A model generated the notes under the pieces. That model ran no database searches and was not told where the DNA came from. It was given only the letters and a program-made list of their open reading frames with translations. Source: Eubacteriales bacterium (lineage in GTDB: Bacteria > Bacillota > Clostridia > Oscillospirales > JAAYXM01). Taken from it: a DNA stretch of 52,027 bases. Every line of letters starts with the position of its first letter. Position 1 is the stretch's first letter. The position numbers and the translations under genes are program-made. The stretch is taken from the NCBI GenBank assembly GCA_045636205.1, contig JAZTXE010000042.1, positions 1 to 52,027 on the forward strand, read 5' to 3'. Shown here in pieces: positions 7,192 to 43,739 of the stretch.

Positions 7192-7842
7192 TTATTTTCC
7201 AAACATTTCAATGCACTGTTTTTCATCAAAATCAGCAATGTTTACTTTAGCAATTTTGCGCATCGCTTTATAAATTTTCACCTTGTCACCGCACCACTCG
7301 GCATAGTATTCATTTACCTTAACCCCCAGAACACAGCTTCCCTTGCCAACCAAAAACACCTTGGGAAATACCCTGCGGCATGTACGGTAAAAATCCCATT
7401 GTTCTTTCTTTTCTAAAAACAACTCAGAAACATCGCGTGCATTAAAAAACTGATACCTGCTCGTGAATATGCTCACATCCGGAACAATATTCCCCGTCAA
7501 AATTGCTCTATTGAGCGGTAACCATTCCTCTACATAAAATTTGTAGTACAGTTTCTTAGGATTCTGATTGGTGGGTATTTGATGTATCATACTTCTCTCA
7601 ATAAGCTCAGTCTTTATAACCTTGCCGTACACATACACCCCGGTATCTTCCTTTTTAAACAGACGAGGTGATTGATAAAGCGCAATATACTCGATGGGGA
7701 ATCTTATCTTTAGCACCCACTCCTCAGGAATATGGTAGAATTTATACTTTATATTATAGTCAAGCTGCTTTCGGTTTCTGAGCACGCCCACCATCACATC
7801 ACGCACATCAAAATCGTGCGAGGTTTTATCCATATCACCCAC
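7192..7842 (-). CDS. Hypothetical protein resembling the C-terminal domain of DUF2357/PD-(D/E)XK McrC-like nucleases, without the nuclease core
   Basis: RDVMVGVLRN..QL....YKFYHIP...IEYIALYQS..LF.....G...YG.V pattern recalled from that family; AT-rich. Confidence 0.55.
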   Translation of the reverse strand: MGDMDKTSHDFDVRDVMVGVLRNRKQLDYNIKYKFYHIPEEWVLKIRFPIEYIALYQSPRLFKKEDTGVYVYGKVIKTELIERSMIHQIPTNQNPKKLYYKFYVEEWLPLNRAILTGNIVPDVSIFTSRYQFFNARDVSELFLEKKEQWDFYRTCRRVFPKVFLVGKGSCVLGVKVNEYYAEWCGDKVKIYKAMRKIAKVNIADFDEKQCIEMFGK

Positions 7843-11006: not shown

Positions 11007-11036
11007 TTGACACCGCATGAGAAAGTGTGGTATACT
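11007..11036 (+). promoter_or_regulatory. Sigma-A promoter for tRNA-Gly
   Basis: TTGACA-N18-TATACT with extended TG. Confidence 0.75.
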
Positions 11037-11070: not shown

Positions 11071-11144
11071 GCAGGTGTAGTTCAATGGTAGAACTTCAGC
11101 TTCCCAAGCTGATAACGTGGGTTCGATTCCCATCACCTGCTCCA
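11071..11144 (+). tRNA. tRNA-Gly(CCC)
   Basis: GCAGGTG/CACCTGC acceptor stem, anticodon arm TCAGC-TTCCCAA-GCTGA, GTTCGATTCC T-loop, encoded CCA. Confidence 0.97.
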
Positions 11145-11200: not shown

Positions 11201-13840
11201 ATGAAGAAGTTAGTAATAGGTATTTTAGCGCACGTAGATGCCGGTAAAACCACGTTGAGCGAAGCTCTTTTGTACACAAGCGGCGCACGGCGCACGCTTG
11301 GACGCGTAGACCACAGAAACGCGTTTTTGGACACGGATGTGCAAGAACAGGAGCGTGGCATAACAATATTCTCAAAGCAGGCGTTACTTTCCTTTAACGG
11401 AGCAGACATTACCCTGCTCGACACCCCGGGGCATGCAGACTTCTCATCAGAAATGGAACGTACTCTGCAGGTGCTCGACTGCGCGGTTTTGGTCATAAGC
11501 GGAACCGACGGTGTTCAAGGTCATACACGCACGCTTTGGAAGCTATTGGAGAGCTATAACATCCCGGTATTTATATTTGTAAATAAAATGGACTTAGACG
11601 GAGCCGACCCGCAAGCAGTTATCACCCAACTTAAATCACGCTTAAGTGACGCTTGTATAGACTTCGGCTCCCCTACATCCGAGCGCGATGAAGCTATCGC
11701 CATGTGCTCAGAAGCTGCATTGGATAATTTTTTAGATTCAGGCAGCGTTTGTCATAAATTGACCTCTGAGCTTATTTCTTCAAGAAAAGTTTTTCCGGTA
11801 TGGTTTGGCTCCGCATTGAAGCTTGAGGGGATTGAGGAATTCCTCTCCAACCTCGCATCATATTCAACGCCTCCTGTCTATTCAAATGAGTTTGGCGCAA
11901 AGGTTTTTAAAATATCACATGATGAAAAGAATCAGCGCTTGACATGGCTTAAAATAACCGGCGGCTCGCTTCGCGCCAAAACCCTTTTGTCCGGCGGAAA
12001 TGACGAGAATGCATGGCAGGAAAAAGCCGATCAGCTGCGTCTGTATTCGGGCTCAAAATTTTCCGCAACGGATGAAGCTTCGGCAGGCGAAATTATCGCC
12101 GTATCCGGACTTACCAAAACCTATGCAGGTATGGGACTCGGCATTGAACCCGACTCTCCTTCCGCGGTTCTTGAACCCGTGCTCAATTACCGTTTGATTT
12201 TGCCGGACGGTTGCGATGCGCACACGGTTCTCCCCCGGCTTAAACAGCTTGAAGAAGAGGACCCTATGCTCAAGATACTTTGGAGCGAGGAAAACAAGGA
12301 AATCCACGTCCGCCTTATGGGGCAAATCCAACTGGAGGTTTTACGCCGCTTGATTTCCGACCGTTTTAATCTGCAAGTGGATTTCGGCGCAGGGAGCATA
12401 GTATATAAAGAGACCATCTCAAACCGAGTCGAAGGAATCGGACACTTTGAGCCATTGCGTCACTATGCCGAAGTTCACCTTCTAATGGAGAGCGCGCCAC
12501 GCGGGAGCGGGATTGAAATCTCATCCTCTTGCCCTACGGACAAGCTGGACCTGAACTGGCAACGTCTGATATTTACGCATATAGCAGAGCGTGAGCATCC
12601 GGGTGTCCTGACCGGTTCAGCAATTACCGATATCAAAATTTCCGTAGTTGCCGGACGTGCTCATGTAAAGCATACAGAAGGCGGTGATTTCCGTCAGGCG
12701 ACTTATCGCGCAATCCGACAGGGACTTATGCAGGCGGAAAGTGTTCTTTTGGAACCCTTTTACGATTTTACACTTGAGCTTCCGCCAAGCTGTGTAGGTC
12801 GTGCAATGACGGATATTCAGACCATGGGCGGCGAATTGAACGACCCTATCACTGACGGTGAAATGACGGTCTTGTCAGGTTTCGCTCCGGTTGCCGGACT
12901 TTCCGATTATTGGCAGGACGTGACCGCGTACACGCGCGGATTGGGGCGCCTGACCTGTAGTTTCCGCGGATATGAACCGTGCCGAAATCAGCAAGAGGTT
13001 GTCGTCGAAATCGGATACGATCCGGAGCGTGACACGGAAAATACGCCGGACTCAGTTTTCTGTGACCACGGCGCAGGTTTTAATGTAAAGTGGAACCGTG
13101 TGCGTGATTATATGCATGTTGACAGTGGTCTTAATCTAAACAAAAATGAGCATGCATCCACTGCCACCCCCTCATCGTCGGTTTCACGCAGCACGTACAT
13201 CGGCTCACTTGAACAAGATAAGGAGCTTGAGGCGATTTTTGAGCGCACCTACGGCAAGGTTGACCCACGAAGGTTTCACGTGCGCCCACCCGCCTCATCT
13301 GCATCCTCAACCGACACTTACAAATTACGACAAGCCAAAAAATCGGATGAATATCTTTTGGTTGACGGATATAACATCATTTTCGCATGGGATGAGCTCA
13401 AATCACTCGCCGAGTATGACTTGTCCGCCGCACGCGCCGCGCTTGAGGATATTCTGATAAACTACAGAGGCTTTAAAAACTGCACGGTAATACTGGTATT
13501 TGATGCCCATAAGGTGCGCGAAAACCCGGGTTCAGTCGAAAAAACAAACGGGATTTATGTTGTATATACCAAAACTGCAGAAACCGCAGATAACTATATC
13601 GAGCGCACCACCTATCAACTGGGGCGGGATAAAAAAATTCAAGTTGCAACCTCGGACGGCTTAGAACAGATGATAATTTTGGGTCATGGCGCACTGCGAA
13701 TATCCGCAAACGCATTTAAAGCAGAAATTCAAGCTGCGCAGATTGAAATTTCACAAGTAATTCAGTCGCACAACAGCGACATGCAGAACCGCCCGATAAT
13801 CAGAAAAAGTAATAACCGTGAAAACCGCATCGGAAAGTAA
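11201..13840 (+). CDS. EF-G/TetM-like translational GTPase fused to a C-terminal NYN (YacP/Rae1-type) ribonuclease domain
   Basis: AHVDAGKTT, RGITI, DTPGH, NKMD G-motifs and EF-G domains II-V; C-terminal LLVDGYNII...VFDA...ETAD.YIE...VATSD. Confidence 0.92.
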   Translation: MKKLVIGILAHVDAGKTTLSEALLYTSGARRTLGRVDHRNAFLDTDVQEQERGITIFSKQALLSFNGADITLLDTPGHADFSSEMERTLQVLDCAVLVISGTDGVQGHTRTLWKLLESYNIPVFIFVNKMDLDGADPQAVITQLKSRLSDACIDFGSPTSERDEAIAMCSEAALDNFLDSGSVCHKLTSELISSRKVFPVWFGSALKLEGIEEFLSNLASYSTPPVYSNEFGAKVFKISHDEKNQRLTWLKITGGSLRAKTLLSGGNDENAWQEKADQLRLYSGSKFSATDEASAGEIIAVSGLTKTYAGMGLGIEPDSPSAVLEPVLNYRLILPDGCDAHTVLPRLKQLEEEDPMLKILWSEENKEIHVRLMGQIQLEVLRRLISDRFNLQVDFGAGSIVYKETISNRVEGIGHFEPLRHYAEVHLLMESAPRGSGIEISSSCPTDKLDLNWQRLIFTHIAEREHPGVLTGSAITDIKISVVAGRAHVKHTEGGDFRQATYRAIRQGLMQAESVLLEPFYDFTLELPPSCVGRAMTDIQTMGGELNDPITDGEMTVLSGFAPVAGLSDYWQDVTAYTRGLGRLTCSFRGYEPCRNQQEVVVEIGYDPERDTENTPDSVFCDHGAGFNVKWNRVRDYMHVDSGLNLNKNEHASTATPSSSVSRSTYIGSLEQDKELEAIFERTYGKVDPRRFHVRPPASSASSTDTYKLRQAKKSDEYLLVDGYNIIFAWDELKSLAEYDLSAARAALEDILINYRGFKNCTVILVFDAHKVRENPGSVEKTNGIYVVYTKTAETADNYIERTTYQLGRDKKIQVATSDGLEQMIILGHGALRISANAFKAEIQAAQIEISQVIQSHNSDMQNRPIIRKSNNRENRIGK

Positions 13841-13861: not shown

Positions 13862-14533
13862 CTATATTAAATATAAAAAAATACATAGAAATTGCAGCAC
13901 GCTCCCCAAGACCACAAACAAATGGAAAACTGAATGCATATATCTGCACTTCTTTCCGACTCCGTATAATATCGCGCCTATAGTATACGCTATTCCTCCC
14001 GCGAGCAAAAGCATAACCCCCGGCATTTGAACCGATGCAATAAGCGCCTTAGGCGCAAGCGCTATACACCATCCTATTCCTATATAACAAATCATCGAAA
14101 ACACGGAATACTTTTTCAAATCCACCGCCGTAAGTGCCGTTGCCAACACAGTAAGTCCCCAGACAAGTCCGAATAGAACCCATGCAGCCGTGGGGGATGC
14201 CTTTCGTATCGCGCATAAAAGCATCGGCGTATACGTGCCCGCAATCAAAAAGTAAATCGTGCAATGGTCTATCACTTGCATCACTTTTTTGGCGGTATTT
14301 TTTCTAAGGCCGTGGTACACGCTTGACACGGTATAAAGCATAATAAGCGATGCACCGTATATTGAACAGCTGACCACCGCCCAGACATTGCCCTTCATTG
14401 CCGCAAAAATCACACAAAGTGCGGTGATTATTATTCCAAATCCCCCGCCTACAATATGCGATACCATATTAAATATTTCCTCACCCCGTGTGTAATCGGG
14501 TAAATCTCTGTCACGGAGTTTTGTGCGCTTCAT
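13862..14533 (-). CDS. Hemolysin III / PAQR (TrhA-like) membrane protein
   Basis: EEIFNMVSH, SSVYH, DHCTIYFLIAGTYTP, HSVFHLFV; 7 TM; start at 14533 behind AAAGGGAG. Confidence 0.92.
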   Translation of the reverse strand: MKRTKLRDRDLPDYTRGEEIFNMVSHIVGGGFGIIITALCVIFAAMKGNVWAVVSCSIYGASLIMLYTVSSVYHGLRKNTAKKVMQVIDHCTIYFLIAGTYTPMLLCAIRKASPTAAWVLFGLVWGLTVLATALTAVDLKKYSVFSMICYIGIGWCIALAPKALIASVQMPGVMLLLAGGIAYTIGAILYGVGKKCRYMHSVFHLFVVLGSVLQFLCIFLYLI

Positions 14534-14704
14534 TTTAATCTCCCTTTCGTCAAATAATCTAAAACATTTCACAACCTTGTGTCGTATATTATATTACCAC
14601 GACACGAGAATTATGTCAACAGTGTTGTGCTCGAGATAATATTGATTTTTTCAACTGAATATGATAAATTATAATTACTAAAACATACGTCAGGGTGAAT
14701 AACA

Positions 14705-15319
14705 ATGTATGAAAAAGCTTTTGTAGCCGATAAATTGCGCCGTTGGGAAAAATTTTTGCGAAACTTCCGCCTTCCCATGTGGGAGGAAATCCCGAATTTA
14801 GGACTGTATATGGACCAGATAATCGTCTTGCTCACCGAGTATTTGGACTATTTACCGCCTGAAATCAAGGAAGATAAATATATCACCGCCTCTACTATAA
14901 ATAACTATGTTCGTATTAAGGCTATGCCTGAGCCTATTAAGAAAAAGTATTACCGCACGCATATTGCCTATCTGATAATGATATGCACACTTAAGCAAAC
15001 TCTAAACATCGCAACGCTCCAAAAACTTATTCCCGTAGGCATTGATGATGTGCAGGTGCGAAAAATATACAATGCATATGCCGAGCGCCATCGCGCCATG
15101 GCAGAACACTTTATTGAGCAAGTAAAACTCGCAGCTGCCCCAATTCTGGATGAGAATAATTCAGGTGATGCAACAAAACAAACAAACGACCTGATAGCCG
15201 CATCCGCAATAAGCGCAGGCTTTGCACGCTTGCTCTCAGAAAAGCTTTTGGCACTGAGTAATACTGATGACAATGCTGCTTCAAAACAAACAAAGGAGAA
15301 CCTCGCAGTAAATGACTAA
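14705..15319 (+). CDS. DUF1836 family putative transcriptional regulator
   Basis: LP.WEEIP.L.LYMDQ...IT.S.INNYV.....P.P.KKKY.R.HIAYL; divergent from the hemolysin III gene. Confidence 0.85.
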   Translation: MYEKAFVADKLRRWEKFLRNFRLPMWEEIPNLGLYMDQIIVLLTEYLDYLPPEIKEDKYITASTINNYVRIKAMPEPIKKKYYRTHIAYLIMICTLKQTLNIATLQKLIPVGIDDVQVRKIYNAYAERHRAMAEHFIEQVKLAAAPILDENNSGDATKQTNDLIAASAISAGFARLLSEKLLALSNTDDNAASKQTKENLAVND

Positions 15320-18585: not shown

Positions 18586-20271
18586 TTAACTGTGGCTTAT
18601 TTCAACCGCGCGGCGAAGTGCCCCCTCTGACTTTTCATCATATACGATATTTACCGAATCACCTACGTTAAGGATAACCGCGAGTTCACTGTCCGCCGCG
18701 GAAATGACGTAATACGACACATCATTTGCAAGACGGATGTAGTACATGGTATTTCCGCCAATTACCGCCGAGCGTATCTCGGAAACAACTCCGGAAACCG
18801 TAGTCTCTACAGGAGCAGCGCTCTGGGTAATGCCGTGCTGAAGCATCAGGCGGATATATTCCTTCTCACACTCAGCAACCGTATTTCCGGTAGCTACAAT
18901 CTGATACTGCGAAACATTAACCATAGCATACATCTTGACAAGTTCAGCTCTGTCCTTGAGTGCCATAAAGTATGTCGGCTGAGAGGAAATATTGAGAAGC
19001 AGCGGGAATGTAGCCGCGTAACCCAGATGCTGAACAACGCCTTGTGCGGATGCCATGGCAGAGTATTCGGCTGCGCCTGCGCAGGAATAATATCTGGTCT
19101 CCTTTGTGCGCTGGTTTGACAAAATAAAACCGACGTTTGACTGGTCTCCGCCAACCGATGTGATGCCGGTATATACCCAAATATCGTCGTTTAACGCGAT
19201 ATAGTTATATCCGTCTGTCGTAACAGTTACGTCCTTCTGACCGAATATTGAGTTAAAGAATCCGTTGCGGTAGGTTCCGTAATAGTCGTACTGCTCGATG
19301 ATAAGCGCGGCTGTGTATACACGGTCAACCCAAGTCGGGATTTCCTCAGGAGAATAGTATTTGCTCTCGCCCGTGCAAGCGTTCACGAGTACCGCGCCGC
19401 TTATGTCCTCGCCACCGAAAAGACCGATTCTCTTTACTATGCGCGGGCATACCCAGTACGGATTTCCGTCTTCATCCACTTCAAATGTCGCATTTCCGAA
19501 CATATATGTGGGATAATTAAAGCGCAGATGTCTATCCAAATAACGCCCGAAAAGCTCGGTTTTCGAGTACTTTATGCCGTTTTCCAGGCGAACCACGTCT
19601 ACATTTTGGGTTACCATATCGATGACTATATATGCAGGCAATCCTCTGCTGCGGTTATTAAACCACTTTATAACATCACCGTACTCCAGGCATGCAACAC
19701 GCACCGGACGGTTATTGTAATTAATCTGTGTATAATCATCCGAAACCTCGAACTGGCTAACCATGTCCGCGAGCTCACCGAGTTTGCGGTCACCCAGTCG
19801 CTCTGCGGAGTCCTCATCGAGCATCGGTATTTTATCGTAAGAAATCTCCGTAACCTCGCTTGCAAAATTACCGGGTTCGACTTTGAGAAGGTTTTTATAC
19901 GAATTTGCACGAAGAAGCGGCCATGAGGATACCGTGCCGACTATTCCGACCGCAACAAGCAATAAAATTACTATGCCGCTTACTTTGCACTGGCTTTTGA
20001 CATATTTAAAATATTCCTTGGCACCACCCTGCACACTCGCCTGAAATCCGGAGGTTATAAGTGAGCATATGATGTACACTCCGCATAAGATGCCGATAAA
20101 CGTATAAAACTCCTGCGCCTGCGGATTTATTGCGGGAAGCGATACGTAAAAATACACCGCGGCAAATATGAGCGTCACCAAAACATTTACCAAAATCCGT
20201 GTCGCACGGCTGCGAATTGCAAATTTCTTAGGCTCCTGTGCATTGCTGTAATCAAAGCCTGTTTTGAACAT
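18586..20271 (-). CDS. Membrane-anchored hypothetical protein (3 N-terminal TM helices, large soluble domain, OB-like C-terminus)
   Basis: 561 aa ORF with AGAGGAG RBS; hydrophobic N-terminal segments. Confidence 0.75.
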   Translation of the reverse strand: MFKTGFDYSNAQEPKKFAIRSRATRILVNVLVTLIFAAVYFYVSLPAINPQAQEFYTFIGILCGVYIICSLITSGFQASVQGGAKEYFKYVKSQCKVSGIVILLLVAVGIVGTVSSWPLLRANSYKNLLKVEPGNFASEVTEISYDKIPMLDEDSAERLGDRKLGELADMVSQFEVSDDYTQINYNNRPVRVACLEYGDVIKWFNNRSRGLPAYIVIDMVTQNVDVVRLENGIKYSKTELFGRYLDRHLRFNYPTYMFGNATFEVDEDGNPYWVCPRIVKRIGLFGGEDISGAVLVNACTGESKYYSPEEIPTWVDRVYTAALIIEQYDYYGTYRNGFFNSIFGQKDVTVTTDGYNYIALNDDIWVYTGITSVGGDQSNVGFILSNQRTKETRYYSCAGAAEYSAMASAQGVVQHLGYAATFPLLLNISSQPTYFMALKDRAELVKMYAMVNVSQYQIVATGNTVAECEKEYIRLMLQHGITQSAAPVETTVSGVVSEIRSAVIGGNTMYYIRLANDVSYYVISAADSELAVILNVGDSVNIVYDEKSEGALRRAVEISHS

Positions 20272-41654: not shown

Positions 41655-43739
41655 TTACTCAGCCTGCTTGTTGCGAGTAGTAATAATCTTCTCCTGCAGA
41701 CTCTTCGGGAGCTCAACATAGTGACTCGGCTCCATGGTGTACTGACCACGGCCCTGGGTACGTGAACGCAGGTCGGTAGCATATCCGAACATTTCGGAGA
41801 GCGGAACGAATGCGTCAATCTGCTGTGCACCTGCACGAGCTTCCATACCCTGAATCATGCCACGACGTGAGTTAAGGTCACCAATAACGTCGCCCATGTA
41901 ATCCTCAGGCGTGATAACAGCAACCTTCATGATCGGCTCCATGAGAACCGGGTCAGCCTTGCGGCATGCTTCCTTGAATGCCATACTGCCGGCAATCTTA
42001 AATGCCATTTCGGAAGAGTCAACTTCATGGTAAGAGCCATCGTAAAGGGTTACCTTTACGTCAACTACGTTATAGCCTGCAAGGATACCAGCCTGCATAG
42101 CGCCCTGGATACCTGCATCGACCGCCGGAATGTATTCCTTCGGTACCGCGCCACCAACAATTTTGTTGATAAACTCGTAGCCCTTGCCGGACTCGTTAGG
42201 CTCAACGATAATCTTAACATGACCGTACTGACCTTTACCGCCGGACTGACGGGAATACTTATGGTCAACATCGGCTGACTTACGAATGGTTTCTTTGTAA
42301 GCAACCTGGGGCTTACCTACGTTTGCTTCAACCTTGAATTCGCGAAGCAGACGGTCAACGATAATCTCCAGATGCAGCTCGCCCATACCTGCGATGATGG
42401 TCTGACCGGTTTCCTCATCAGTGTAGGTACGGAAGGTCGGATCTTCTTCAGCAAGCTTTGCAAGAGCGATGCCCATCTTCTCCTGACCGGCTTTCGTCTT
42501 CGGCTCAATAGCGACACGGATAACCGGCTCGGGGAATTCCATGGACTCAAGGATAATCGGTGCCTTCTCATCACAGAGAGTATCACCGGTGGTGGTGTTC
42601 TTAAGACCTACAGCTGCAGCAATGTCGCCGGAGTAAACTCTTTCGATATCCTCACGGTGGTTTGCGTGCATCTGCAGAATACGTCCGATACGCTCCTTGT
42701 TGCCCTTAACAGTATTGAGAACTGCAGAGCCTGCATCAAGCTGACCTGAATATACGCGGAAGAAGCAGAGCTTACCTACGTACGGGTCGGTTGCAATCTT
42801 AAATGCGAGCGCAGCAAACGGTGCATTATCGTCGGACGGACGAGAATCCTCCTCGCCGGTGTCCGGGTTAATGCCTGCGATAGGCGGAATGTCTGTCGGA
42901 GCGGGCATATATGCTACAACCGCATCCAGCAGCTTCTGAACGCCCTTATTGCGGTAAGAAGTACCGCAGCAGACCGGGATCATCTTAACAGCGATAGTCG
43001 CCTGGCGAATCGCATTATGAATAGTCTCTTCGGAGATTTCTTCACCCTCGAGATACTTCATCATGATCTCGTCATCAAAGTCGGAAATAGCTTCGAGAAG
43101 TGCTACACGGTACTCCTCAGCCATATCCTTCATATCCTCCGGAATTTCTTCCTCGCGGACATCGGTACCCAGTGCATCATAATAGACAGTAGCCTTCATG
43201 GTTACCAGGTCTACAATACCCTTGAAGGTATCTTCTTTTCCGATAGGCAACTGAATCGGAACCGCATTACATTTAAGGCGATCCTTCATCATATTAACAA
43301 CGTTAAAGAAATCCGCGCCCATGATATCCATCTTATTTACATAAGCCATACGCGGAACGTTGTACTTGTCAGCCTGACGCCAAACGGTCTCAGACTGCGG
43401 CTCAACACCGCCCTTAGCACAGAAAACGGTAACGCTTCCGTCGAGAACACGCAGTGAACGCTCAACCTCGATAGTAAAGTCAACGTGGCCCGGGGTGTCG
43501 ATTATATTGATACGGTGGCCTTTCCAATGGCAGGTGGTAGCAGCGGAGGTAATGGTTATTCCGCGCTCCTGCTCCTGAGCCATCCAGTCCATGGTAGCAG
43601 TGCCGTCATGGGTATCACCGATCTTATAGTTACGGCCGGTGTAGTACAGGATACGCTCGGTAGTGGTGGTCTTACCCGCATCGATATGCGCCATAATTCC
43701 AATATTTCTTGTTAATTCAAGAGGAAACTCTCTTGGCAT
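41655..43739 (-). CDS. fusA: Elongation factor G
   Basis: [31 protein letters not shown]. Confidence 0.99.

Follow-up and report, generated by a model that had tools for sequence, protein, structure and literature searches.

Why would a bacterium join an mRNA-cutting nuclease of the Rae1 type to a GTPase of the translation-factor kind? The question is raised by the window analyzed here, a 52,027-nucleotide contig (JAZTXE010000042.1, assembly GCA_045636205.1) from an Eubacteriales bacterium, in which positions 11201..13840 (+) form a single unbroken open reading frame (ORF) of 879 amino acids plus stop that encodes a translational GTPase joined to a Rae1-type NYN RNase. We propose that this gene probably encodes the version of Rae1 used by most Clostridia, in which a GTPase anchor would keep the mRNA endonuclease on ribosomes that have stalled. 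In making this proposal we infer ribosome binding, the ribosome state that is recognized, the RNA substrate, and the position of cleavage.

The protein consists, in order, of a five-domain EF-G/Tet-type GTPase, a mini-domain of 43 amino acids, a mostly disordered tether of ~77 amino acids, and a Rae1/YacP NYN domain. An AlphaFold2 (AF2) model built from a 68-member full-length alignment has a mean predicted local distance difference test (pLDDT) score of 86.1 and a predicted template modeling (pTM) score of 0.67, with residues 1 to ~645 and 717–863 confidently folded. The parts of the protein are as follows, with residue numbers and supporting matches in parentheses.

11210..11863 (+): G domain (residues 4–221; Pfam GTP_EFTU, E 7.9e-51)
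11891..12121 (+): domain II (residues 231–307; EF-G_D2 at 26.6 bits, 0.4 below the 27-bit cutoff; β-barrel strands in the AF2 model)
12176..12388 (+): domain III (residues 326–396; EFG_III at 29.1 bits, cutoff 27)
12395..12736 (+): domain IV (residues 399–512; EFG_IV, E 1.1e-14; conservation 0.80–0.86)
12653..12694 (+): loop III at the tip of domain IV, GRAHVKHTEGGDFR (residues 485–498; from alignment, a signature of the subfamily)
12743..12991 (+): domain V (residues 515–597; EFG_C, E 1.2e-17)
12992..13120 (+): subfamily-specific C-terminal mini-domain (residues 598–640; predicted helix, β-hairpin, and helix, pLDDT ~88–93)
13121..13354 (+): tether (residues 641–718; pLDDT below 50 at 649–671 and 685–712)
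13208..13252 (+): predicted helix within the tether, LEQDKELEAIFERTYG region (residues 670–684; motif pattern match; AF2 helix with pLDDT 52–58)
13355..13789 (+): NYN_YacP (Rae1) nuclease domain (residues 719–863; Pfam PF05991, E 6.9e-48; PDB 5MQ8/5MQ9, E 2e-20)

The GTPase portion carries the motifs G1 AHVDAGKT (residues 10–17), switch I RGITI, G3 DTPGH (74–78), G4 NKMD (128–131), and G5 SAL, which are invariant or nearly so among 68 aligned fused members; the catalytic H78 and the G1–G4 residues are invariant in 68/68. With G1–G5, the catalytic His, and domains II–V in place, the protein belongs to the EF-G type, and Foldseek searches with the AF2 model return ribosome-bound EF-G (E 1.5e-53) and ribosome-bound TetM (3J9Y, E 2.4e-45). 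An initial annotation, made from the letters of the window, had described a complete five-domain GTPase with intact G1–G4, and the Pfam and alignment results bear this out. The Pfam scan that it proposed placed GTP_EFTU, EFG_III/IV/C, and NYN_YacP above their cutoffs and EF-G_D2 just below. For the nuclease, Pfam boundaries agree closely with the earlier estimate of about 13349–13790, and the score is 163.2 bits against a cutoff of 24.6 (167.9 bits in a search of the whole genome). This portion aligns with residues 3–144 of Bacillus subtilis YacP/Rae1, and it retains the four acidic motifs noted previously, VDGYN (D722), VFDAH (D768), ETAD (D797), and TSD (D819), whose Asp residues are all invariant in 68/68. 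By alignment, therefore, the catalytic residues of both the GTPase and the NYN RNase are intact across the family.

Conservation over 75 fused proteins is highest in the G domain (0.7–0.87), with domain IV (0.80–0.86) the best-conserved part of the family after it; values are 0.67–0.74 for the mini-domain, 0.62–0.76 for the NYN domain, and only 0.28–0.39 for the tether. The tether ranges from 59 to 129 amino acids (median 75), and no member has fewer than 59. A Ser-rich linker had been noted initially, which is true of the window protein, whereas the composition across the family is rich in E, K, R, A, S, and P. The tether motif DKELxxIFERTYG is matched in 57/75 proteins, and most of the 18 remaining proteins have EEIDxIINxTFY as a variant. 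This layout of folded, disordered, and folded parts, together with a tether that is never shorter than 59 amino acids, fits an anchor plus a tethered effector.

An indication of function comes from the distribution of the gene relative to stand-alone rae1, a comparison that the initial annotation had suggested. NYN_YacP is matched just once, by the fusion itself, in the assembly that contains the window (1.82 Mb in 121 contigs, completeness 94%). Among genomes of the same family and order, NYN_YacP occurs in 10/61, in every case within an open frame of 871–928 amino acids. A sample of the class comprised 200 scored genomes, for which at least 95% completeness had been requested (one more genome was left unscored). 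NYN_YacP exceeded the Pfam cutoff in 132 of these 200: 76 have the fused form (frames of 734–928 amino acids), 55 have a stand-alone form (165–213 amino acids), and one has a frameshifted fused gene (351-amino acid frame). Rae1 is thus more often fused than not in this sample of the class (76/132). Genomes with both a fused gene and stand-alone rae1 numbered 0/132, the only second match being one of 21 bits, below the cutoff. The two forms were likewise never found together in a 400-genome sample (0/263 NYN_YacP-bearing genomes). Four genomes of that sample gave apparent double copies, which were rejected: three were sub-threshold matches of 21 bits, and one was a single gene divided over two contig ends. 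When genomes are grouped by the anonymized families of the search tool, 21 families are fused-only, 18 are stand-alone-only, and three (f37, f48, and f51) are mixed, with some species fused and others stand-alone and no genome that has the two together. Because the fused gene and free rae1 are mutually exclusive, the fused protein is likely to perform the Rae1 task in these organisms, and the earlier suggestion of a ribosome-targeted mRNA nuclease fits this pattern.

Two side observations concern these samples. In three genomes of one genus that hold the fused gene (G317, G443, and G081), frames of ~164 amino acids match the first 49 NYN_YacP positions at 21 bits and may encode a distant PIN/NYN-like small protein. 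The frameshifted fused gene (L100; G166 contig 2, 125600–129000) is broken in domain V, leaving a 588-amino acid GTPase frame and the 351-amino acid remainder, which may reflect a sequencing error or a pseudogene.

A wider scan of species genomes by DNA pattern recovered at least 594 relatives among 603 candidates, a count that includes other translational GTPases. The best 80 relatives are full-length matches of 48–67% identity distributed among numerous clostridial families, including Oscillospiraceae, Acutalibacteraceae, Lachnospiraceae, Clostridiaceae, and Peptostreptococcaceae. These 80 loci comprise 74 complete fused ORFs of 829–917 amino acids and six that are interrupted by contig ends.

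Quick IQ-TREE phylogenies (LG+G4, with support from the Shimodaira–Hasegawa approximate likelihood ratio test, SH-aLRT) were computed for each module. The NYN tree contains 38 fused and 18 stand-alone rows (20 stand-alone loci were fetched, two of which were dropped when a motif filter found no ORF), and a single branch divides the two sets with an SH-aLRT value of 97. The fused NYN domains therefore form their own branch apart from stand-alone Rae1. The GTPase tree has 55 rows: every second one of the 75 fused proteins plus the window protein (38 in all), 11 unfused relatives, four Tet proteins, and two EF-G sequences as the outgroup. In this tree the Tet clade (support 100) is sister to a clade (100) holding all fused and unfused members. 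Within the latter, the fused proteins and a long-branched Ligilactobacillus salivarius protein form one clade with support of 100, and the unfused clostridial forms are basal. The window protein falls inside the fused group in both trees. By its sequence, then, the GTPase represents a subfamily of its own, with the Tet ribosomal protection proteins as its sister group. The simplest reading of the trees, with which they are consistent, is that the modules were fused once and were thereafter inherited together as a single gene, and they are also consistent with inheritance after the fusion that was largely vertical and non-mobile.

The subfamily is further distinguished by a common segment of ~50 amino acids that runs from the last strand of domain V through the mini-domain (GYxPCHN...DSVFCxHGAGFxVKWxxVxxYMH) and that both Tet proteins and EF-G lack. 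The mini-domain, in which C621 and W631 lie, comes after domain V’s invariant C594; in the AF2 model its elements are a helix at 597–604, a hairpin at 618–629, and a helix at 631–637. In this region (12980–13120, residues 594–640), C594 and C621 are invariant, H639 is nearly so, and usually there is a further His in the PCHN and FCxHG motifs. This Cys/His set suggests a possible metal site. In the window protein, Arg replaces the His of PCHN.

The unfused relatives are proteins of ~630–730 amino acids that have the same domain IV loops and mini-domain but end directly after the mini-domain, so that neither the tether nor the NYN domain is present. An example is the 644-amino acid LSL_RS10690 of L. 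salivarius pMP118; identities to the window protein are 42–49% for these relatives as a whole and 48–49% for the proteins of L. salivarius megaplasmids. The pMP118 gene (L085:4529–6920) has as neighbors an additional rpsN (S14) copy and a short gene annotated as “putative metal homeostasis protein.” The Prokaryotic Genome Annotation Pipeline (PGAP) names its product a TetM/TetW/TetO/TetS family resistance protein.

The fusion architecture itself is already known. Atkinson 2015 (BMC Genomics; PMC4342817) noted a Tet-like GTPase/NYN fusion in ten species and suggested resistance as its function, and Matelska 2017 (Nucleic Acids Research; PMC5499597) described the role of a TetM-like/NYN_YacP fusion, which it noted in some Clostridia, as unclear. 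The architecture of the window protein is identical to that of these known fusions, and nothing structural sets it apart. The relevant passages of the two papers do not state the exclusivity with rae1, the class majority, or the single origin, nor do they state the separate GTPase subfamily with its tip and mini-domain, the unfused basal relatives, or the tether helix. Full-text literature searches, with subscription literature outside their coverage, returned no experimental study of the fusion. Passages of recent Rae1 papers (including PMC12407103 and 10.64898/2026.10.09.757949) mention neither the fused form nor how Rae1 is recruited. Thus, the earlier remark that no characterization was known holds for experiments, whereas the fusion had in fact been reported.

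Several features of stand-alone Rae1 are pertinent to how the fused protein might work. The two share the NYN_YacP domain, the DGYN motif, and four catalytic Asp residues, and by analogy they may share the task of cutting mRNA on stalled or collided ribosomes. In contrast to Rae1, which is a free protein of ~170 amino acids that finds ribosomes unaided, the nuclease here is not a single-domain protein of that size but the C-terminal sixth (residues 719–863) of an 879-amino acid GTPase. B. subtilis Rae1 is reported to cut 12 nucleotides upstream of the A-site codon when the ribosome is stalled at a stop codon or proline motif, which places the cut at the ribosome’s rear and not at the A site (PMC12407103). 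The premise of the initial annotation that Rae1 acts at the A site is therefore outdated, and its picture of delivery “next to the A site” is too simple. Rae1 is also reported to cleave non-stop mRNAs with collided ribosomes, where the A site of the leading ribosome is empty (10.64898/2026.10.09.757949), and to provide substrates for trans-translation (PMC13622287). Tet-type factors, for their part, are described as binding the A site of stalled ribosomes (PMC7456112).

We propose that the N-terminal 640 residues, which are of the EF-G/Tet type, serve to anchor the protein to the ribosome in a GTP-dependent manner. The GTP form would dock in the factor-binding site, and the strongly conserved tip of domain IV would enter the vacant decoding center (A site) of a stopped ribosome. 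The NYN domain, on its flexible tether of 59–129 residues, would then cut the mRNA at the ribosome edge or between a stalled and a colliding ribosome, and the factor would be released upon GTP hydrolysis. The cut mRNA would be degraded, and ribosomes on the truncated message would be freed by transfer-messenger RNA (tmRNA) and SmpB. The genome encodes both of these, together with a MutS2-like Smr protein. Because cleavage would still require tmRNA and SmpB, the label “one-protein rescue factor” that was applied initially exceeds the data.

Since Rae1 cuts far from the factor-binding site, either the tether must bridge the gap or the GTPase must sit on a trailing ribosome. Two geometries can be envisioned. 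The anchor could be on the stalled ribosome, with the tether reaching round to the exit side, or it could be on the trailing ribosome, in which the mRNA entry lies against the leader’s exit. In principle, ~50 disordered residues plus a helix could span well over 100 Å, an estimate made from chain length. A probably similar way of working is known from SmrB of Escherichia coli and Cue2/NONU-1 of eukaryotes, in which a small nuclease domain acts at stalled or collided ribosomes and yields truncated mRNA for rescue, according to passages of PMC13622287 and 10.64898/2026.10.09.757949. These proteins differ from the fusion in having an SMR rather than an NYN fold and in being recruited via hooks or ubiquitin-binding domains and not by a translational GTPase.

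A number of points weigh against the proposal that the fused gene is a GTPase-anchored Rae1. The cut made by Rae1 is on the mRNA exit side, far from the factor-binding site (PMC12407103), and the proposal would need either a tether long enough to cover that distance or a GTPase bound to the trailing ribosome. No experiment on any member was found in the literature, so every functional step is inferred. The function is dispensable, because 51/61 close relatives and 68/200 class genomes are without NYN_YacP. Rae1 also works without the GTPase, given that 52/55 genomes with stand-alone rae1 lack this GTPase subfamily. Conversely, the unfused GTPase occurs in 10/200 class genomes (42–46% identity), seven of which have no Rae1 at all and three of which have stand-alone rae1, and it is present in 6/401 genomes of a phylum sample. 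Moreover, 44 Ligilactobacillus plasmid records were matched, and the 28 that were listed cover only residues 1–641 to 1–650. This persistence without Rae1 implies that the GTPase has some role of its own. Finally, related genomes do not count as independent, which makes the exclusivity counts a pattern rather than a statistical test and overstates their weight.

The start of the gene offers a further objection, for which two upstream features are needed.

11071..11144 (+): tRNA-Gly(CCC) predicted by ARAGORN, ending 57 nucleotides before the start codon
11146..11173 (+): terminator-like hairpin of 12 base pairs (−20.3 kcal/mol, z −4.9) that precedes a U-run and lies in the gap separating tRNA and start codon

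The hairpin ends only ~25 nucleotides before the ATG of the fusion gene, and as judged from the sequence this leaves no space for a promoter of its own. The sole strong promoter-like site (11007–11036, 11/12 matches) is located upstream of the tRNA-Gly gene. Expression of the fusion gene may therefore need read-through of the tRNA terminator. This arrangement is private to the genome examined here, as a tRNA adjoins the fused gene in 0/50 related loci.

Other explanations have to be weighed. One that we consider unlikely, although it merits attention, is that the NYN domain acts on rRNA or tRNA and not on mRNA, and that it processes or destroys them while ribosomes mature, hibernate, or are turned over. 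The original proposal for NYN_YacP was a function in rRNA/tRNA maturation, and stand-alone yacP shares an operon with mrnC and a gene for an rRNA methyltransferase, as described in a passage of PMC5499597. An anchor in the factor site with a tether would bring rRNA and tRNA within reach as well, and the unfused GTPase would have a ribosomal role of some kind. However, all tested Rae1 substrates are translated mRNAs in the passages on Rae1 cited here, and the fused NYN domain still has the catalytic residues of Rae1 and takes the place of rae1 in a one-to-one manner. In addition, rRNA-processing genes are not linked to the fused gene in the 72 loci whose neighborhoods were surveyed.

There is also a small chance that the modules are independent, such that the fusion merely co-expresses a housekeeping GTPase and an ordinary Rae1 with no mechanistic coupling. 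Each module does occur alone in other genomes. The tether is poorly conserved overall, as the values above indicate, and its helix makes no confident contact in the AF2 model, where its pLDDT is low. Yet the two modules were never found re-split into separate intact genes in the sampled lineages; 76 intact genes and one frameshifted gene make up the 77 fused copies of the class sample. The tether keeps its minimum length and carries a conserved helix, the trees of the two modules are congruent in their main groups, and both partners are ribosome-directed by family.

We judge it improbable that the protein is a Tet-type ribosomal protection protein with an added nuclease and that resistance is its function, as Atkinson 2015 suggested. 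There are genuine resemblances to Tet(M)/(O)/(W)/TetB(P), including five EF-G-like domains. Among solved structures, TetO and TetM give the best sequence matches and each align in a single stretch (residues 1–594), whereas EF-G aligns in two; the long EF-G-type G′ insert is missing from the G domain. Loop III contains the DFR motif and has the same length as that of Tet(M), the subfamily is sister to the Tet clade, and PGAP names some members TetM/W/O/S family proteins. The last finding agrees with the initial expectation that such ORFs are auto-annotated as tetracycline resistance genes, and PGAP applies these labels to unfused relatives as well.

Against the resistance explanation, tblastn comparisons with plasmid sequences give the GTPase an identity of 28–30% to Tet(M)/(O)/(W)/(S) and 33.6% to TetB(P), which is like its ~28% identity to EF-G. 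The NCBIfam model tet_protect (NF012153) scores the fusion at 402.2 bits, about half of the cutoff of 775 and roughly equal to the 382.6 bits of the genome’s own EF-G, and the Tet(M) class model scores it at 221.5 bits against a cutoff of 1420. Describing the protein as TetM-like, as was done initially, thus overstates the kinship. The tip and the C-terminal end also differ. Loop III reads GRAHVKHTEGGDFR in the fusion versus GLYYSPVSTPADFR in Tet(M)/(O)/(W), and EF-G differs again, with the length equal in all three. Its invariant residues in the fused family are G485, H491, T492, G495, D496, and R498. The tip is AHxKHTEGG in the fusion and YYSPVSTPA in Tet proteins, so that the alignment reveals no YSPVS tip (Ser508, Pro509, and Val510 of Tet(M)) in the fusion loop. 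Likewise, the short C-terminal helix (CTE) of Tet(M) was not found, and its place is taken by the conserved mini-domain of ~43 amino acids, which cannot be aligned to Tet. Pro509 of Tet(M) overlaps the tetracycline site (PMC7456112), but loop III of Tet(M) is reported to tolerate substitutions provided that the loop shape stays (PMC4750697). Given this tolerance and the equal loop length, the sequence by itself leaves drug displacement possible.

Mobility provides another contrast with Tet proteins. Full-length copies were found on only two of 1497 query-matching plasmid records, on replicons of 252–518 kb; the genomic context is non-mobile, and the trees are consistent with largely vertical inheritance. 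A resistance function also gives no reason for the exclusivity with rae1.

A toxin-like or anti-phage abortive-infection effector that halts translation by cutting RNA on ribosomes is extremely improbable: nuclease–sensor NTPase pairs are common in defense systems and the gene context differs between lineages, but the gene has one copy per genome, is exclusive with housekeeping rae1, and has trees consistent with vertical inheritance through many families, while the neighborhood surveys, made with no dedicated PADLOC scan, showed no defense or mobile neighbors.

If the GTPase of the anchored Rae1 is a targeting device, then the fusion constitutes a natural experiment on Rae1 recruitment, the protein is a GTP-controlled nuclease on the ribosome, and the subfamily may be a housekeeping relative that resembles the ancestor of the Tet resistance proteins. 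A broader scenario is possible but doubtful. In most Clostridia, Rae1 surveillance might be GTP-gated, a housekeeping GTPase of the A site, one sensing vacant decoding centers, having acquired the nuclease a single time and the fusion having displaced free Rae1 in every genome where it is present, and the same GTPase lineage might be the sister group from which the Tet protection proteins arose. If this were true, resistance proteins would descend from a ribosome-rescue factor, and the fusion would show how Rae1 is aimed at stalled ribosomes.

Recent work on Rae1 cutting behind stalled or collided ribosomes makes the fused family timely. The class sampled here includes dominant gut anaerobes (Faecalibacterium, Ruminococcus, Lachnospiraceae, and Oscillospiraceae), and in the class sample the fused protein is the only form of Rae1 in the genomes that carry it. 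The Tet labels that PGAP gives to members and to unfused relatives may inflate resistome counts in gut metagenomes.

The fusion gene is one of three genes for EF-G-type proteins in its genome. Canonical fusA is separate, at 41655..43739 (−), as had been recognized at the outset; it scores 1186.9 bits with TIGR00484 and lies beside tuf and rpsG. The third is an EF-G2-like paralogue (contig 72, L003) with a 732-amino acid open frame, a degenerate P-loop (GHSGSGKT), and DTPGG without the catalytic His.

Gene neighborhoods were surveyed at the 72 loci mentioned above (three of the 75 family members, L007, L030, and L045, were left unplaced). The 367 flanking ORFs of these loci fall into 314 clusters, and no conserved partner gene was found among them. 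Nor was the helix-turn-helix (HTH) neighbor mentioned in a passage of Matelska 2017 (PMC5499597) seen at any of the 72. Some neighbors recur within limited lineages, namely an ABC ATPase (seven loci, at varying positions), ROK (six), a CLC channel (four), Dus (three), and PsiE (three). We also looked in the window’s own genome for a vacant ancestral rae1 slot (mrnC-rlmB-rae1-sigH), and this search yielded no informative synteny. The rlmB-like gene of the genome (contig 97) is situated between a polysaccharide deacetylase gene and an 801-amino acid ORF without a Pfam match (L125:5066–7471), which is followed by era.

Within the window, the ORFs at 7192–7842 (−) and 18586–20271 (−), of 216 and 561 amino acids, match no Pfam family at E ≤ 0.001. 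The initial impression of a chromosomal setting with no mobile element agrees with the flanking genes, which encode E1 dehydrogenase subunits and a GH43 protein upstream and HlyIII and DUF1836 proteins downstream, where HlyIII is convergent with the fusion gene. At 13862–15319, directly downstream of the fusion, the HlyIII-family membrane protein gene (−) is divergently paired with the DUF1836 gene (+).

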